Positions 3,135-24,989 of a stretch of 24,989 bases of DNA are shown piece after piece. Both the position numbers and the translations under genes were made by a program. The notes under the pieces are model-generated. The model had not been told where the DNA came from, did no database searches, and saw only the letters and a list, made by a program, of their open reading frames with translations. This stretch comes from a virus (lineage: Duplodnaviria > Heunggongvirae > Uroviricota > Caudoviricetes): the IMG/VR virus record IMGVR_UViG_2619619133_000007. One strand, written 5' to 3'. How positions within the stretch are numbered: the first letter of the stretch is position 1; each line of letters begins with the position of its first letter.

Positions 3135-3737
3135 ATGAGCTATTTTCTGCGCAAAAAATGGATGGTAAATTTGTCCGGGTCAGGAAAAATTTTATGGGCG
3201 CTAAACATGAAAAAAGATTCGTATCCTTATTTGATTTGCATGACAGTTTCAGGGCTGATCTTTATTTTCCTTTTCTTCTGGTGGCGGGCAGATATCTACA
3301 GGGTCACGTTTCTTAATCAGAGTATATCCCACTATTACATTCTGTTTAGCATGGGAATAGCTTTTCTGTTATCTCTGTTTTGGGTTAAGAAGGGGATAGT
3401 AAAACAAAGAGGCTGGAAGAGTCTGTCAGCATACCTTAAGGTTTATGCAGGGATGTGCATATTTGCTGGATTTTTTCTGATTATACCCCTTACGACACTA
3501 ACTTATTTTTTGCCTGGAGAGACATCGTCTTATGTTGCACCGTATCGGTATACTTCCGGTAGTTCAAAAAGTTGTTCTGGAGCTGAGGTGGATGACCCCG
3601 ATCTACATGAGAATATTCGCATTTGCTATCCGTATGGCAATTATGAGTACGATAATATTATCTATGTTGAAAAGAAAATTAATATATTAGGTGCGGTAGT
3701 GACATATGCACAGACCGCGCGTGATGATACTGAATGA
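3135..3737 (+). CDS. Hypothetical membrane protein (about 3 predicted TM helices plus ~80-aa C-terminal soluble region); accessory (moron-like) gene; start codon uncertain (in-frame ATGs at 3135, 3162, 3207)
   Basis: 200-aa ORF on strand opposite to the flanking early-left genes, in a markedly AT-rich segment; hydrophobic stretches LICMTVSGLIFIFLFFWW, ILFSMGIAFLLSLFWV, VYAGMCIFAGFFLIIPLTTL; followed by hairpin terminator; no family recognised. Confidence 0.55.
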   Translation: MSYFLRKKWMVNLSGSGKILWALNMKKDSYPYLICMTVSGLIFIFLFFWWRADIYRVTFLNQSISHYYILFSMGIAFLLSLFWVKKGIVKQRGWKSLSAYLKVYAGMCIFAGFFLIIPLTTLTYFLPGETSSYVAPYRYTSGSSKSCSGAEVDDPDLHENIRICYPYGNYEYDNIIYVEKKINILGAVVTYAQTARDDTE

Positions 3738-3771
3738 TATAGTATATAGCGGGCAAGTTTTAGTTAATTTA

Positions 3772-3809
3772 TCGAGGTAATATAATTTACCTCGACTCGT
3801 TTGTTCTGG
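3772..3809 (+). terminator. Putative intrinsic terminator for the accessory gene
   Basis: Perfect 9-bp stem TCGAGGTAA/TTACCTCGA (3772-3795) followed by CTCGTTTGTTCT. Confidence 0.5.
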
Positions 3810-3947
3810 TATTAATATTTCGCTTTACGACCGATTTTTATCTGATGATATCATGCGGTTTTCATATACTGACTTACTGTCTTTTCTCCGTTAGCGATTT
3901 TCTCCTGCTCAGCGATGATTTTATCTTTGGCTTCTAGTTAATTTCGC

Positions 3948-4169
3948 TCACTTCGAACCTCTCTGTTTACTGATAAGCTCCAGATCCTCCTGGCAACTTG
4001 CACAAGTCCGACAACCCTGAACGACCAGGCGTCTTCGTTCATCTATCGGATCGCCACACTCACAACAATGAGTGGCAGATATAGCCTGGTGGTTCAGGCG
4101 GCGCATTTTTATTGCTGTGTTGCGCTGTAATTCTTCAATTTCTGATGCTGAATCAATGATGTCTGCCAT
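3948..4169 (-). CDS. TraR/DksA-family C4 zinc-finger protein (lambda Orf73-like)
   Basis: 73-aa ORF with CxxC...CxxC motif (CCECGDPIDERRRLVVQGCRTCASC), characteristic of TraR/DksA family. Confidence 0.75.
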   Translation of the reverse strand: MADIIDSASEIEELQRNTAIKMRRLNHQAISATHCCECGDPIDERRRLVVQGCRTCASCQEDLELISKQRGSK

Positions 4170-4267
4170 CTTTCATTAATCCCTGAATTGTTGGTTAATA
4201 CGCTTGAGGGTGAATGCGAATAATAAAAAAGGAGCCTGTAGCTCCATGATGATTTTGTTTTTCATGC

Positions 4268-20140: not shown

Positions 20141-20680
20141 ATGGCCATAAAAGGTCTTGAGCAGGCCATTGAAAACCTCAGCCGTATCAGCAAAACGGCG
20201 GTGCCTGGTGCCGCCGCAATGGCCATTAACCGCGTTGCTTCATCCGCGATATCGCAGTCGGCGTCACAGGTTGCCCGTGAGACAAAGGTACGCCGGAAAC
20301 TGGTAAAGGAAAGGGCCAGGCTGAAAAGGGCCACGGTCAAAAATCCGCAGGCCAGAATCAAAGTTAACCGGGGGGATTTGCCCGTAATCAAGCTGGGTAA
20401 TGCGCGGGTTGTCCTGTCCCGCCGCAGGCGTCGTAAAAAGGGGCAGCGTTCATCCCTGAAAGGTGGCGGCAGCGTGCTTGTGGTGGGTAACCGTCGTATT
20501 CCCGGCGCGTTTATTCAGCAACTGAAAAATGGCCGGTGGCATGTCATGCAGCGTGTGGCCGGGAAAAACCGTTACCCCATTGATGTGGTGAAAATCCCGA
20601 TGGCGGTGCCGCTGACCACGGCGTTTAAACAGAATATTGAACGGATACGGCGTGAACGTCTTCCGAAAGAGCTGGGCTAA
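20141..20680 (+). pseudogene. Z: Tail gene Z, C-terminally truncated (179 aa versus ~192) at a deletion junction
   Basis: Matches lambda gpZ up to ...RERLPKELG, then a stop; downstream sequence is J-derived. Confidence 0.75.
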
Positions 20681-20796
20681 CCGAATCTCATCTCGGCAAG
20701 GAGCTGCTGGAAAAAGTCGATCTGACGGAGGATAACGCCAGCAGACTGGATGAGTTTTCGAAAGAGTGGAAGGACGCTAACGATAAATGGAATGCC

Positions 20797-23328
20797 ATGT
20801 GGGGCGTCAAAATTGAGCAGACCAAAGACGGCAAACATTATGTCGCGGGTATTGGCCTCAGCATGGAGGACACGGAGGAAGGCAAGCTGAGCCAGTTTCT
20901 GGTTGCCGCTAACCGTATCGCGTTTATTGACCCGGCAAACGGGAATGAAACGCCGATGTTTGTGGCGCAGGGCAACCAGATATTCATGAACGACGTGTTC
21001 CTGAAGCGCCTGACGGCCCCCACCATTACCAGCGGTGGCAGTCCTCCGGTATTTTCCCTGACATCAGACGGAAAGCTGACCGCTAAAAATGCGGATATCA
21101 GTGGCAGTGTGAATGCGAACTCAGGAACGCTCAACAATGTCACGATTAACCAGAACTGTACGATTAAGGGCATGCTGGAGGCGACCCAGGTCAGAGGGGA
21201 TTTCGTTAAAGCTGTATCAAAAGCCTTCCCGAAAAAAGTCGGTACGTGGGGTAACACGGAAACACCAAACGGTACGGTTATTGCATCCGCCGTGGCGCTT
21301 GAGGATGCGAGCACGACGAAAAAGGGGATAGTACAGCTCAGCAGTGCGACCAACAGCACTTCCGAGTCACTGGCGGCAACGCCAAAGGCAGTAAAAGCAG
21401 CCTATGACAATGCAGAGAAACGTCTGCAGAAAGACCAGAACGGCGCTGATATACCCGATAAGGTACGCTTCCTGAACAACATTAACGCGGTCAGTAAAAC
21501 AGACTTTGCTGATAAGCGTGGTATGCGTTATGTGCGGGTTAACGCTCCTGCAGGTGCAACATCTGGAAAATATTACCCTGTTGTTGTTATGCGTTCTGCT
21601 GGCTCAGTAAGCGAACTGGCATCAAGGGTCATTATCACCACGGCAACGCGAACCGCAGGCGATCCGATGAATAACTGCGAGTTTAACGGATTTGTTATGC
21701 CTGGTGGCTGGACTGACAGGGGGCGTTATGCTTATGGAATGTTCTGGCAATATCAAAACAATGAACGAGCCATCCACTCAATAATGATGAGTAATAAGGG
21801 CGATGATTTGCGCTCTGTGTTCTATGTTGATGGCGCTGCTTTCCCTGTTTTTGCGTTCATCGAAGATGGCCTGTCAATATCCGCACCTGGTGCTGATCTC
21901 GTTGTTAATGATACGACCTATAAGTTTGGGGCAACAAATCCAGCGACTGAATGTATCGCGGCGGACGTTATCCTTGATTTTAAGAGTGGGCGTGGTTTTT
22001 ATGAGTCCCATTCGTTAATCGTTAACGATAACTTGTCGTGCAAAAAACTTTTTGCCACAGACGAAATTGTAGCGCGTGGTGGTAATCAGATTCGAATGAT
22101 AGGTGGGGAGTATGGTGCATTATGGCGTAATGATGGCGCTAAAACTTACCTGCTGCTTACCAATCAAGGTGATGTTTATGGTGGATGGAATACATTAAGA
22201 CCGTTTGTTATTGATAACGCAACCGGCGAACTGGTTATTGGAACCAAACTGTCTGCAAGTCTGAACGGTAACGCATTGACAGCAACAAAGCTGCAAACGC
22301 CAAGACTGGTTTCTGGTGTTGAGTTTGATGGTTCCAAAGATATTACTTTAACCGCCGCGCATGTGGCTGCTTTTGCCAGAAGGGCAACGGATACATATGC
22401 CGATGCGGATGGTGGCGTTCCCTGGAATGCCGAATCAGGCGCTTACAATGTCACCCGCTCTGGCAACAGCTATATTCTGGTTAACTTCTATACCGGAGTC
22501 GGAAGTTGCCGGACCCTGCAGATGAAGGCGCATTACAGAAATGGTGGTCTGTTCTACCGTTCTTCAAGAGACGGTTATGGTTTTGAGGAAGACTGGGCAG
22601 AAGTTTATACCTCGAAAAATCTTCCACCAGAAAGCTACCCAGTCGGCGCACCAATCCCGTGGCCATCAGATACCGTTCCGTCTGGTTATGCCCTGATGCA
22701 GGGGCAGACTTTTGACAAATCTGCCTACCCGAAACTTGCAGCCGCTTATCCGTCAGGCGTGATCCCTGATATGCGTGGCTGGACGATTAAGGGCAAACCT
22801 GCCAGTGGTCGGGCCGTATTGTCTCAGGAACAGGACGGCATTAAATCGCATACCCACAGCGCCAGCGCATCCAGTACGGATTTGGGGACGAAAACCACAT
22901 CGTCGTTTGATTACGGAACCAAATCCACGAATAACACCGGGGCGCATACCCATAGTATTAGCGGGATCGCAAATAGTGCCGGTGCGCACCAACACAAGAG
23001 TTCCGGTGCATTTGGTGGCACGAACACGAGCATTTTCCCTAATGGTTATACCGCGATTTCAAATCTAAGCGCGGGGATTATGAGCACAACAAGCGGTAGT
23101 GGCCAGACTCGTAATGCAGGGAAGACATCATCAGATGGTGCTCATACCCACTCGCTGTCCGGCACTGCTGCAAGCGCAGGCGCACATGCACATACTGTCG
23201 GTATTGGTGCTCATACGCACTCCGTTGCGATTGGTTCACATGGACACACCATCACCGTTAACGCTGCTGGTAACGCGGAAAACACCGTCAAAAACATCGC
23301 ATTTAACTATATTGTGAGGCTTGCATAA
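20797..23328 (+). CDS. Chimeric tail fibre protein: J (host-specificity protein) C-terminal-region fragment fused in frame to a side-tail-fibre (Stf-like) body with His-rich (HxH) C-terminal domain; open frame extends upstream to 20656 without ATG
   Basis: First ~145 aa match the lambda J region (...[28 protein letters not shown]...NCTI.G.L....GD.VKA.S.AFP); from [39 protein letters not shown] onward it is Stf-like, ending in the lambda Stf C-terminus (...[30 protein letters not shown]). Confidence 0.7.
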
Positions 23329-23909
23329 TGGCATTCAGAATGAGTGAACAACCACGGACCATAAAAATTTATAATCTGCTGGCCGGAACTAATGAATTTA
23401 TTGGTGAAGGTGATGCATATATTCCGCCTCATACAGGTCTGCCAGCAAACAGTACCGATATTGCACCGCCAGATATTCCGGCTGGCTTCGTGGCTGTTTT
23501 CAACAGTGATGAGTCATCGTGGCATCTCGTTGAAGATCATCGGGGTAAAACGGTTTATGACGTGGCTTCCGGCGACGCGTTATTTATTTCTGAACTCGGT
23601 CCGTTACCGGAAAATGTTACCTGGTTATCGCCGGAAGGGGAGTTTCAGAAGTGGAACGGCACAGCCTGGGTGAAGGATACGGAAGCAGAAAAACTGTTCC
23701 GGATCCGGGAGGCGGAAGAAACAAAAAACAACCTGATGCAGGTAGCCAGTGAGCATATTGCGCCGCTTCAGGATGCTGCAGATCTGGAAATTGCAACGGA
23801 GGAAGAAATCTCGTTGCTGGAAGCATGGAAAAAGTATCGGGTATTGCTGAACCGTGTTGATACGTCAACTGCACAGGATATTGAATGGCCAGTAGCACCT
23901 ATAGGGTAA
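23328..23909 (+). CDS. tfa: Tail fibre assembly protein Tfa
   Basis: 193-aa ORF overlapping stf stop (TAATG), matches lambda Tfa. Confidence 0.9.
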
Positions 23910-24001
23910 ATTCGTAATGATTACCTAAATACGTTATTCTTTTGTTAAAAAAGTGATTTTTCTATAGGTAGGGAGTATGTTCTTGGATTAAGAATAAAAA
24001 A

Positions 24002-24026
24002 TCGCCATGAAAGAGCTTCATGGCGA
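24002..24026 (-). terminator. Putative intrinsic terminator (minus strand)
   Basis: Perfect 10-bp stem TCGCCATGAA/TTCATGGCGA with 5-nt loop, followed on the minus strand by TTTTTTATTCTT. Confidence 0.55.
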
Positions 24027-24658
24027 ATACATAAACGTACAAAATGTGATGAAAGTAGAGTGGCGTAAGCCACTATATTAAGATATAACAATAGCGAAGA
24101 AAAGTAAATAACATTTTATGGACGTTTAATTGTTAATTATAAAAACTAGAGTGCCCGATATTGTTTATCTTGCTTTAAAATAATGTACTCAAACCAAATT
24201 TTTGAGCTAAAAGCTCAAATAATATAAATGCAATAATAATGTTTAATAAGACAATTAGCTTGCTTTGTATTTTCATTTCGGAATACTGTTAAGTAACTTT
24301 GATGACCCTAACAATAGATCGGAATTTTCTTAGAGTCAATGGTCACTGTTTTTGCTTGCAAAGCAAATGTTTTGGTGGTTATAAGTTGTCTTAATATAGT
24401 CACGCATGCAACTTGTTCCATGCGGAGATTAAAGATTGGAATATAACGCGAAGATGGAATTAAATTACATTTGCAATAATCAATTTATTATTACTCAATA
24501 ATTACCGATATTATTATTGTAAATTAATCATTAGAGTGCAAAAAGAAATGTAACGGCAAAATAAGAGGACGATAGCTGAGAAAAAAGCGTGCTTTCCCAA
24601 TCTGGGGCAAATCACGTCTGAATGACACCTGAAAACAGGTGGTAGCCTCAAGAAGGCT

Positions 24659-24989
24659 GGTGATGCTGCCAACTTACTGATTTAGTGTATGATGGTGTTT
24701 TTGAGGTGCTCCAGTGGCTTCTGTTTCTATCAGCTGTCCCTCCTGTTCAGCTACTGACGGGGTGGTGCGTAACGGCAAAAGCACCGCCGGACATCAGCGC
24801 TATCTCTGCTCTCACTGCCGTAAAACATGGCAACTGCAGTTCACTTACACCGCTTCTCAACCCGGTACGCACCAGAAAATCATTGATATGGCCATGAATG
24901 GCGTTGGATGCCGGGCAACTGCCCGCATTATGGGCGTTGGCCTCAACACGATTTTACGTCACTTAAAAAACTCAGGCCGCAGTCGGTAA
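24659..24989 (+). mobile_element. IS1: IS1 insertion sequence, left ~331 bp (continues beyond window)
   Basis: Terminal inverted repeat GGTGATGCTGCCAACTTACTGAT at 24659 followed by insA. Confidence 0.9.
24714..24989 (+). CDS. insA: IS1 InsA protein
   Basis: 91-aa [54 protein letters not shown]... matching IS1 InsA; stop is the last codon of the window. Confidence 0.95.

Follow-up and report, generated by a model that had tools for sequence, protein, structure and literature searches.

The AT-rich interval between tfa and IS1

The window, by which we mean the whole stretch of DNA analysed (24,989 nucleotides (nt); IMG/VR record IMGVR_UViG_2619619133_000007, Caudoviricetes), contains near its right end a 749-base-pair (bp) region, 23910-24658, that lies between the tail fibre assembly gene tfa and an insertion sequence, IS1. 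The tfa gene (23328-23909, plus strand) has its stop codon at 23909, and the first base of IS1 is 24659. Calculated over 200-nt segments from 23800 to 24699, the G+C content is 24-39%, compared with ~50% in stf/tfa and IS1. The region holds no open reading frame (ORF) of 60 or more amino acids, the four longest having 52, 48, 37 and 33. A first-pass annotation, made from the sequence of the window, had described about 750 bp of very AT-rich DNA free of ORFs above 60 amino acids, a perfect 10-bp minus-strand hairpin with a T-tract at 24002-24026 and a 33-codon minus-strand ORF at 24175-24276; all of these features were recovered here. We propose that the interval carries a small leftward gene cassette, convergent with tfa, whose product is probably a membrane peptide of the YncL type.

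The cassette spans ~430 bp (~23930-24359, minus strand) and was delimited by its absence as a block from a Qin-like prophage and by its base composition. In that prophage (locus L010) the tfaQ stop codon followed by 'attcgtaatgattaccta' is joined straight to the equivalent of window position ~24360, so that the ~430 bp behave as one indel; the limits are uncertain by a few bases owing to runs of A. The G+C content of the cassette is 24-31%, against ~50% in tfa. Within it we recognized a promoter-like site, the 33-codon ORF with its 3' untranslated region (UTR), a terminator, and nothing else.

Matches to the 749-bp region were found in 1329-1481 of 5426 complete Escherichia coli genomes, always on chromosomes and never with an annotation beneath the match. 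Full-length matches occur in 280 genomes at 98.8-100% identity, and E. coli IAI1 (NC_011741.1) has the complete interval at 852974-853722; region positions 1-578 have ~95% matches adjoining tfaQ in Qin-like prophages integrated in ydfJ, and the final 85 bp alone are matched in many genomes. The cassette itself is present in 830 of the 5426 genomes (~15%), with 945 copies and up to four per genome. No copy is plasmid-borne and none is annotated by the Prokaryotic Genome Annotation Pipeline (PGAP). It follows tfa in prophages at no fewer than four places in the chromosome (serU/zinT, ydfJ, sit and the site occupied in the window), and in most of the prophages that resemble the window similarity ends at 23891. 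Three free lambda-like phages, ev099, mEp332 and PhiR70_1, contain the whole region after tfa; their annotations place conflicting small ORFs there or none, and the 33-amino-acid ORF is never called.

A distant YncL homologue on the minus strand

The 33-codon ORF and its stop (24276-24175, minus strand) would encode MKIQSKLIVLLNIIIAFILFELLAQKFGLSTLF, a YncL-like single-pass membrane peptide as judged by profile search, BLASTP, shuffling, substitution rates and hydropathy. The peptide is very hydrophobic (grand average of hydropathy (GRAVY) 1.5), and its best 19-residue hydropathy segment covers residues 7-25, as does that of YncL; the earlier suggestion of a hydrophobic product with a single transmembrane segment is thereby supported and its core located. 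An NCBIfam search of the peptide returned a sole match, NF000537 'stress response membrane protein YncL' (E = 1.3e-5, 25.0 bits), in which residues 1-28 align to a 30-position model. BLASTP against K-12 YncL (MNVSSRTVVLINFFAAVGLFTLISMRFGWFI) gave an ungapped alignment starting at Met1, with 11 of 28 residues identical (39%) and 18 of 28 positive (E = 2e-7). The Smith-Waterman score between the two is 60, whereas 20,000 shuffles average 20 and reach at most 54. A hidden Markov model (HMM) built from 17 distinct chromosomal YncL proteins, with the prophage peptide excluded, gave the peptide 28.9 bits, whereas the best of 20,000 composition-matched shuffles reached 13.4 bits, and none of the other 383 window ORFs was among the top scores. 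A degenerate DNA pattern for the YncL family, run on 185,579 GTDB species representatives and on metagenomes, yielded 40 GTDB loci, all of them Enterobacteriaceae yncL genes, and zero random matches. In a protein search with YncL as the query, all eight returned proteins carried PF28073 and six of the eight were named YncL by their source.

Residues common to the peptide and YncL are S5, K/R6, V9, the intramembrane N12, A16, L19 and K/R26-F27. Both proteins have an N-terminus rich in Lys and Arg, then a transmembrane helix of 19 residues that includes the family-invariant Asn12, and a (K/R)-F motif past the helix. YncL (E. coli K-12 b4598; NF000537; PF28073; Salmonella STM14_1932 / 'STnc1110'), which Enterobacteriaceae induce under stress and place in the inner membrane, has 30-31 residues and the peptide 33, the single helix occupying residues 7-25 in each. 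Both are encoded in a short monocistronic unit that has a -35/17/-10 promoter of its own (predicted for the prophage unit), a C before the -10 element and a 3' hairpin. The two differ at the C-terminus, GWFI in YncL and GLSTLF in the peptide, whose …LLAQKFG end is nearer to the Enterobacter/Leclercia subfamily (…ILAEKFHWF) than to E. coli YncL. They also differ in setting: yncL lies between patD and ortT in K-12, whereas the prophage gene follows tfa in lambdoid prophages and phages, in a cassette of 24-31% G+C. The yncL loci of the E. coli/Salmonella/Citrobacter type bear an AAGGTGG Shine-Dalgarno (SD) sequence 5-6 nt before the ATG, and the prophage gene has none; the prophage 3' UTR, in turn, is far longer (~150 nt) and ends in a block of high conservation. 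The small membrane proteins that E. coli induces under stress and that cross the membrane once, YohP among them, belong to the same size class and share the architecture, but YohP shows no similarity to the peptide above background, with a Smith-Waterman score of 25 against 60 for YncL. By these comparisons the peptide is a distant homologue of YncL, a divergent phage-borne variant that is neither an equivalog nor an orthologue; we refuse the latter label because the peptide scores below the equivalog cut-off, the synteny differs and the SD sequence is missing.

Close relatives of the peptide were sought by several routes. A protein search with a tandem-duplicated query returned nothing beyond variants of the peptide itself that carry a frameshift or an IS fusion. 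HMMER, run on all 1.84 billion representatives, recovered the identical 33-amino-acid protein, one frameshift variant and nothing more, from which we conclude that there are no close relatives outside the cassette. Among ~15 billion proteins, gene callers had predicted the peptide on only 2 contigs. A tblastn search of the phage collection came back empty even for four phages that do carry the peptide, presumably through low-complexity filtering, so this negative carries no weight. Searches of the peptide against PHROGs and PADLOC gave no match, and a literature search retrieved neither a prior description of the peptide nor a paper tying YncL to prophages in this sense. The frameshift variant P0001, whose residues 1-28 are identical to the peptide, has a precomputed match to PF28073.1. 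Both P0001 and P0003 are frameshifted beyond residue 26-28; in P0002, foreign sequence, probably from an insertion, is fused in frame to peptide residues 7-33.

Protein-level constraint on the ORF

We compared close alleles in 66 copies from genomes, IMG/VR and metagenomes, representing 32 haplotypes. Six sites of the ORF are variable; five of the changes are synonymous and one is non-synonymous (A24D), although the ORF holds only 19.7 synonymous and as many as 76.3 non-synonymous sites (binomial p ~0.002). Variation affects 1 of 76 non-synonymous sites but 22 of 148 sites in the 3' UTR (p = 0.0008). Read in the remaining five frames, 0-3 of the six changes are synonymous, and the signal is specific to the frame of the ORF. 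A divergent allele, the NIST0056 type, was found in 21 genomes at 79% nucleotide identity. Its ORF, which reads MKIQSKLIILLNIIFALILFKLLAQKFGLYTLF, still opens with the ATG, has exactly 33 codons and closes with the stop; an indel of 5 nt stands right after the stop codon, and further indels lie in both UTRs. The window and NIST0056 ORFs are 83% identical at the nucleotide level and differ by 10 synonymous and 7 non-synonymous changes, giving a synonymous rate (dS) of 0.85, a non-synonymous rate (dN) of 0.094 and a dN/dS of 0.11 (Fisher p = 1e-4). The ORF was intact in all 67 close-allele and all three divergent-allele copies retrieved. These sequence comparisons show that the ORF is under purifying selection as a protein. 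The first-pass annotation had allowed that the ORF could have arisen by chance and had pointed to its conservation in related sequences as a check; the ORF proved to be maintained, and the chance reading is rejected on account of the YncL homology together with the protein-level substitution pattern.

Within the ORF, an 8-bp hairpin (UUUGAGCUUUUAGCUCAAA, 24201-24219, minus strand, codons 20-26) was flagged as terminator-like by the scan. One arm is altered by SCU-111 (GCT to GAT, giving A24D) and by NIST0056 (GAG to AAG). Because each allele changes one arm, the hairpin is probably not a conserved structure.

A promoter-like site and the translation start

A promoter-like site, TTGACT-17 nt-TATTGT with TC directly before the -10 element (tcTATTGT), was identified at 24311-24339 on the minus strand by a consensus scan and by its conservation between alleles. 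Transcription from it would start near 24304 and give an mRNA of ~310 nt. The motif is 90% identical between the window and NIST0056, compared with 74% for the DNA upstream and 71% for the 5' UTR. Its layout is like that of the chromosomal yncL promoter, in which TTGCGG, a 17-nt spacer ending in C, and TATACA are followed by TAGGG at the start region; in the prophage these become TTGACT, a 17-nt spacer ending in TC, TATTGT and, again, TAGGG. SigmaS promoters typically have a C at -13. Since matches of equal quality are as common in shuffled sequence, we treat the site as a predicted promoter. In the centroid fold the start codon is free of pairing; translation is likely SD-independent and probably modest. 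In one copy (strain LA3, locus L011, ~2884-2890) the IS5-like element ISKpn26 lies ~17 nt upstream of the ATG; the predicted promoter is lost and the ORF is intact.

The terminator and a conserved 3' block

The intrinsic terminator, found by a terminator scan and by folding, occupies 24026-24002 on the minus strand. It consists of a stem-loop of 10-11 bp, TCGCCATGAAGCTCTTTCATGGCGA, with the loop CUC, followed by UUUUUUAUUC; the 10-nt arms are perfectly complementary, or form 11 pairs if a terminal G-U is included, and the scan gives the tract behind the hairpin as TTTTTTATTC. Two terminator-like sites, both on the minus strand, were detected in the region, against 0.3 ± 0.5 in shuffles. We accept the earlier proposal that a leftward transcript, which remains predicted, ends at 24002-24026. 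On the plus strand the same hairpin lacks a U-tract, so anti-terminated late transcription coming from tfa would traverse the cassette in antisense.

The 3' UTR is made up of two parts that differ sharply in conservation. The proximal part (24075-24174, minus strand) is only 73% identical to NIST0056, with 8 gap columns, and holds many of the 22 sites of the 3' UTR that vary among close alleles. The last ~85 nt of the predicted transcript (23990-24074, minus strand) are 92% identical without indels and form the best-conserved part of the cassette; flanking non-coding DNA stands at 68-73%, and the DNA beyond the U-tract at 68%. This 3' block begins with hairpin 1 (24074-24059, 6 bp) and continues with an A/U-rich linker of ~32 nt, the terminator hairpin and a U-tract (24001-23992). 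All 827 carrier genomes have it at 90% identity or more, and it is always accompanied by the cassette. Across seven alleles the linker is invariant save for one C/U difference. The consensus fold retains both hairpins, with two one-sided wobble-compatible changes and zero double compensatory ones.

A 24-codon ORF on the plus strand (MKELHGEYINVQNVMKVEWRKPLY, 24007-24081) overlies the terminator and hairpin 1 and is open in the divergent allele too. We rejected it as a gene, as its changes are four non-synonymous to one synonymous. From this excess it follows that the conservation of the 3' block is not coding and that the ORF is open only through conservation of the RNA element. One recombinant allele (strain A37, locus L223, ~1460-1990) is SCU-111-like in the ORF and 3' UTR and NIST0056-like from the terminator onward; with a breakpoint at the 3' block, gene conversion could contribute to the conservation of the block.

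A covariance-model scan of 23300-24989 with Rfam 15 (E ≤ 1) gave no match in 23910-24658. Its sole match was IS009 (RF02111), full length at 23671-23869 on the plus strand (220.9 bits, E = 1.6e-55) and wholly inside the tfa coding sequence; this 'RNA family' match coincides with a conserved stretch of the tail-fibre assembly gene.

Proposed role of the cassette and competing readings

The best explanation for these observations, to which we assign a probability of about 0.8, is that ~23930-24359 is a self-contained leftward moron that encodes a YncL-type inner-membrane peptide and is expressed in the lysogen. The cassette looks like a moron: it is autonomous, with a terminator and a putative promoter of its own, its base composition is foreign, otherwise similar phages differ in having it or not, and it stands where the late operon ends. 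Classic morons are far larger. Known examples are bor and lom of lambda, gp15 of HK97, a superinfection-exclusion membrane protein, and the cold-shock-like ydfK/ynaE genes downstream of tfa-pin in Qin and Rac.

In the mechanism we propose, the cassette, inserted just after tfa and directed leftward against the phage late operon, would be transcribed from a sigma70/sigmaS-type promoter near 24304 into an mRNA of ~310 nt. This mRNA would comprise an A/U-rich leader of ~28 nt without an SD sequence, the coding sequence for the 33-residue peptide, a 3' UTR of ~150 nt and the intrinsic terminator. By analogy with YncL, the peptide would be made in the lysogen chiefly in stationary phase or under stress. 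In Salmonella, yncL is sigmaS-dependent and was first listed as the small RNA (sRNA) STnc1110 (PMC5437024), and K-12 yncL coincides with a site recovered by systematic evolution of ligands by exponential enrichment (SELEX) with RpoS holoenzyme (PMC5493296). YncL levels rise in heat shock and in minimal medium, as Hemm et al. 2010 is cited in PMC12542507, and YncL is a candidate substrate of RseP (PMC10470546). Once made, the prophage peptide would enter the inner membrane, and its accumulation may partly dissipate the membrane potential and shift the cell to a low-metabolism state with a phage-shock response. Overproduction of YncL and YohP causes sub-lethal depolarisation, a phage-shock-protein (Psp) response and nucleoid condensation, and YncL production also reduces protein synthesis (PMC12542507). 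The outcome might be a benefit to the lysogen or a hindrance to superinfecting phages.

Several points weigh against this explanation. The peptide's 25.0 bits fall short of the NF000537 equivalog cut-off (35 bits), and a Pfam profile search of the peptide found no match. The YncL DNA pattern was built to cover YncL and the peptide alike, which makes the peptide's match to it a matter of construction, and neither the 185,579 species representatives nor 120 metagenome loci contained a form intermediate between YncL and the prophage peptide; all matches belonged to one or other of these discrete types. The substitutions among close alleles come mostly from one lineage, which reduces the population test to a few events. 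The predicted promoter matches the consensus at 9 of 12 positions, and four such sites were found where shuffles lead one to expect 3.7. As had been noticed in the first-pass annotation, no ribosome-binding site is apparent: there is no SD sequence before the ATG (...aacagtattccgaaATG), nor in any allele, and translation may hence be weak. The function of YncL is itself known only from overproduction, and our reading of the locus is built on sequence.

Three other readings were weighed. The first is a dual-function or mainly RNA-level element, in which the 3' ~85 nt, either set free from the transcript or working inside it, would serve as a regulatory sRNA of 3' UTR origin, perhaps one bound by Hfq or ProQ, and the ORF would be secondary. 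CpxQ, SroC and MicL are known sRNAs of 3' UTR origin. The block has the makings of one, since its conserved end runs from a hairpin through an A/U-rich single strand to a terminator and U-tail, as in 3' UTR-derived and dual-function coding sRNAs. It is more conserved (92%, no indels) than the ORF (83%) or the other non-coding DNA (68-74%), the identity of at least 90% extends to all 827 carrier genomes, the linker is nearly invariant, both hairpins persist with one-sided wobble-compatible changes, and the overlapping plus-strand ORF is free of coding constraint. There is also a precedent in Salmonella yncL, first catalogued as an sRNA (PMC5437024). Yet a strong terminator with a stabilising hairpin would by itself be conserved in the same way, the A37 breakpoint lets recombination or gene conversion explain part of the conservation, and compensatory double changes number zero. 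The block, known here from sequence, differs from established sRNAs in matching no Rfam family at E ≤ 1; the U-tract is interrupted (UUUCUU) in other alleles, and a search for targets found no more than 9-nt complementarity between the linker and the rest of the window, which is chance level. Selection acts clearly on the ORF as a protein, and an RNA reading cannot replace the coding one. We regard a dual-function or mainly RNA element as unlikely and retain a role of the 3' block as an sRNA, an RNA-stability element or a chaperone-binding element as a possible secondary hypothesis; of the sRNA alternative raised in the first-pass annotation, an added function conceivably stands and the replacement of the peptide does not.

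A type I toxin-antitoxin pair, in which translation of a membrane toxin is checked by an antisense or adjacent small RNA, is a very doubtful account. The peptide is small, very hydrophobic and single-pass, the missing SD sequence suggests restricted translation, late-operon read-through coming from tfa would cross the entire cassette in antisense, and overproduced YncL lowers viability and membrane potential (PMC12542507). In size, hydrophobicity and predicted inner-membrane location it recalls Hok, TisB, DinQ, ZorO, ShoB, Ibs and Ldr, and its relatives dissipate the membrane potential. It differs from them, however, in that Pfam and NCBIfam gave no match to Hok/Gef, Ldr, Ibs, ShoB, TisB, DinQ, Zor or any other toxin family, only to YncL, which is not part of any toxin-antitoxin pair; PADLOC gave no match either. 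The cassette has no internal plus-strand promoter-like site, although the scan may miss a weak promoter in AT-rich DNA, and no inverted repeat above the AT-rich background that would betray a trans-acting antitoxin. The predicted leader has only ~28 nt, whereas type I toxin mRNAs have leaders that are long and structured. The earlier label 'type I toxin-like' thus fails as a family assignment and survives as a conceivable mode of action, given that overproduced YncL depolarises the membrane (PMC12542507). Least probable of all, to the point of being hardly credible, is a chance ORF or decaying pseudogene in AT-rich junk, without a product, whose terminator merely insulates tfa. Such a reading would account for the absent SD sequence, the lack of any PGAP annotation in 830 genomes and the gene-caller predictions on just 2 contigs, the rare frameshift variants P0001 and P0003 and the copy whose promoter was lost to ISKpn26; moreover, 17 random substitutions would spare the ORF 18% of the time. 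It is opposed by a YncL homology that survives composition-matched shuffling, a dN/dS of 0.11 (p = 1e-4), five synonymous polymorphisms out of six in the ORF frame only, an exact ORF length kept despite frequent indels on either side, and intact ORFs in 67 close-allele and three divergent-allele copies.

Returning to the YncL-type moron, YncL is among the few stress-induced small membrane proteins of E. coli, and its cellular effect has only recently been described. The protein is of a known kind; what is new is a widespread unannotated phage-borne gene with a possibly functional 3' RNA block. A mobile relative in ~15% of complete E. coli genomes that annotation does not see suggests that phages trade such peptides as lysogenic-conversion cargo. 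YncL and the prophage peptide form a natural pair of paralogues through which the action of YncL-type peptides can be studied, and the locus is a concrete case of a conserved small gene missed systematically by PGAP and other gene callers, in which an orphan intergenic region becomes a testable gene with a candidate RNA element. A more ambitious and distinctly improbable extension would make the cassette a phage-mobilised dual-function stress module, in which the peptide tunes the host membrane potential, the 3' ~85 nt are a regulatory RNA and late read-through silences the unit. If true, it could give the lysogen dormancy or tolerance, or exclude or abort superinfecting phages that need proton-motive force for DNA entry, and convergent transcription of the late operon would silence the cassette during lytic growth.

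The spacer, a proposed serU attachment arm and IS1

To the right of the cassette lies an AT-rich spacer (24360-24573) in which sequence comparison supports no gene. Its left part (24360-24487) is common to Qin-like prophages at ydfJ (~95%) and its right part (24488-24573) only to ev099/serU-type phages; the spacer has the densest variable sites in the set, at 25%. Two minus-strand ORFs were considered here and rejected, one of 37 amino acids (24421-24308) and one of 52 (24672-24514) that extends into IS1. Neither has a family match, the two phage annotations that call such ORFs disagree with one another, and both fall in the most variable DNA.

The last 85 bp of the region (24574-24658) form a conserved element that stands at the right end of many prophages with differing cargo, such as nleG-like effectors or a diguanylate cyclase. 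In intact copies, 110 bp of AT-rich DNA separate the element from the 3' 62 nt of the tRNA-Ser(CGA) gene serU, after which comes serU-yodB intergenic DNA. Because intact copies lead in this way into serU and the chromosome, we infer that the element is the phage-side arm of a serU-type attachment site, present in the window as a fossil cut by IS1. The phages ev099, mEp332 and PhiR70_1 carry a fossil serU attR in the b region (L004 = ev099 3665-4199; L001 5665-6368). In these free phages, whose integrase is of the lambda type, the junction includes 340 bp that are 97% identical to the K-12 chromosome; the attR is made up of the phage arm, the 3' 62 nt of the tRNA-Ser(CGA) gene and ~280 bp that match the K-12 serU-yodB intergenic DNA at 97% identity. 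A junction of this kind inside the b region of free phages is therefore read as a fossil attR that has captured host DNA. Between it and int come an AraC-family regulator and IS2 remnants. The minus strand of the 85-bp element has three small hairpins and a U6 run; a terminator of the tI/sib kind at 24574-24658 is unsupported, as the fold is no better than in shuffles (z = -0.66). PGAP places a 55-amino-acid 'capsid protein', or a fragment of it, directly to the left of the element at prophage right ends (L007 3834-4001; L008 3885-3956). In L007, direct repeats of ~90 bp (CACxTCGTATGCAAGAACG...GATTTCCAGCCG) flank the element, and the 'capsid protein' looks like an attachment-site repeat mis-called as a gene.

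The interval is truncated at 24659-24989 (plus strand) by what we take to be the left end of IS1 with insA (24714-24989), starting GGTGATGCTGCC...; the 'IS1 family transposase' annotation on the H3 match agrees with this identity. The window departs from all other copies exactly after ...AAGAAGGCT, where IS1 starts. The suggestion in the first-pass annotation of a decayed b-region remnant disrupted by IS1 applies to 24574-24658, the probable fossil serU arm, and not to the rest of the interval.

Downstream of the cassette or spacer, several loci (L010 2690-2740, L220 3565-3664, L221 and L222 2076-2175) retain relic 3' ends of additional tfa genes. One of them reads 'cgaatggccagctgtacctgtggggtaa', and the others are annotated as tfa pseudogene fragments. 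In the post-tfa region, alternative tail-fibre modules appear to have been patched together by recombination.

The prophage of the window

The window prophage is lambda-like, with tail genes deleted: at ~20680-20797 stf nearly abuts the head-gene block, and the tape measure, J and lom genes of related prophages are missing, so the prophage is defective. We infer that it sits at the lambda attachment site, next to ybhC, because its left end carries a 427-amino-acid ORF and a 356-amino-acid integrase, ybhJ is among the features matched in related genomes, and the integrase end is 99.8% identical to that of ev099. None of the complete genomes is identical to the window, and the best match has 98.5% identity over 94% of it.

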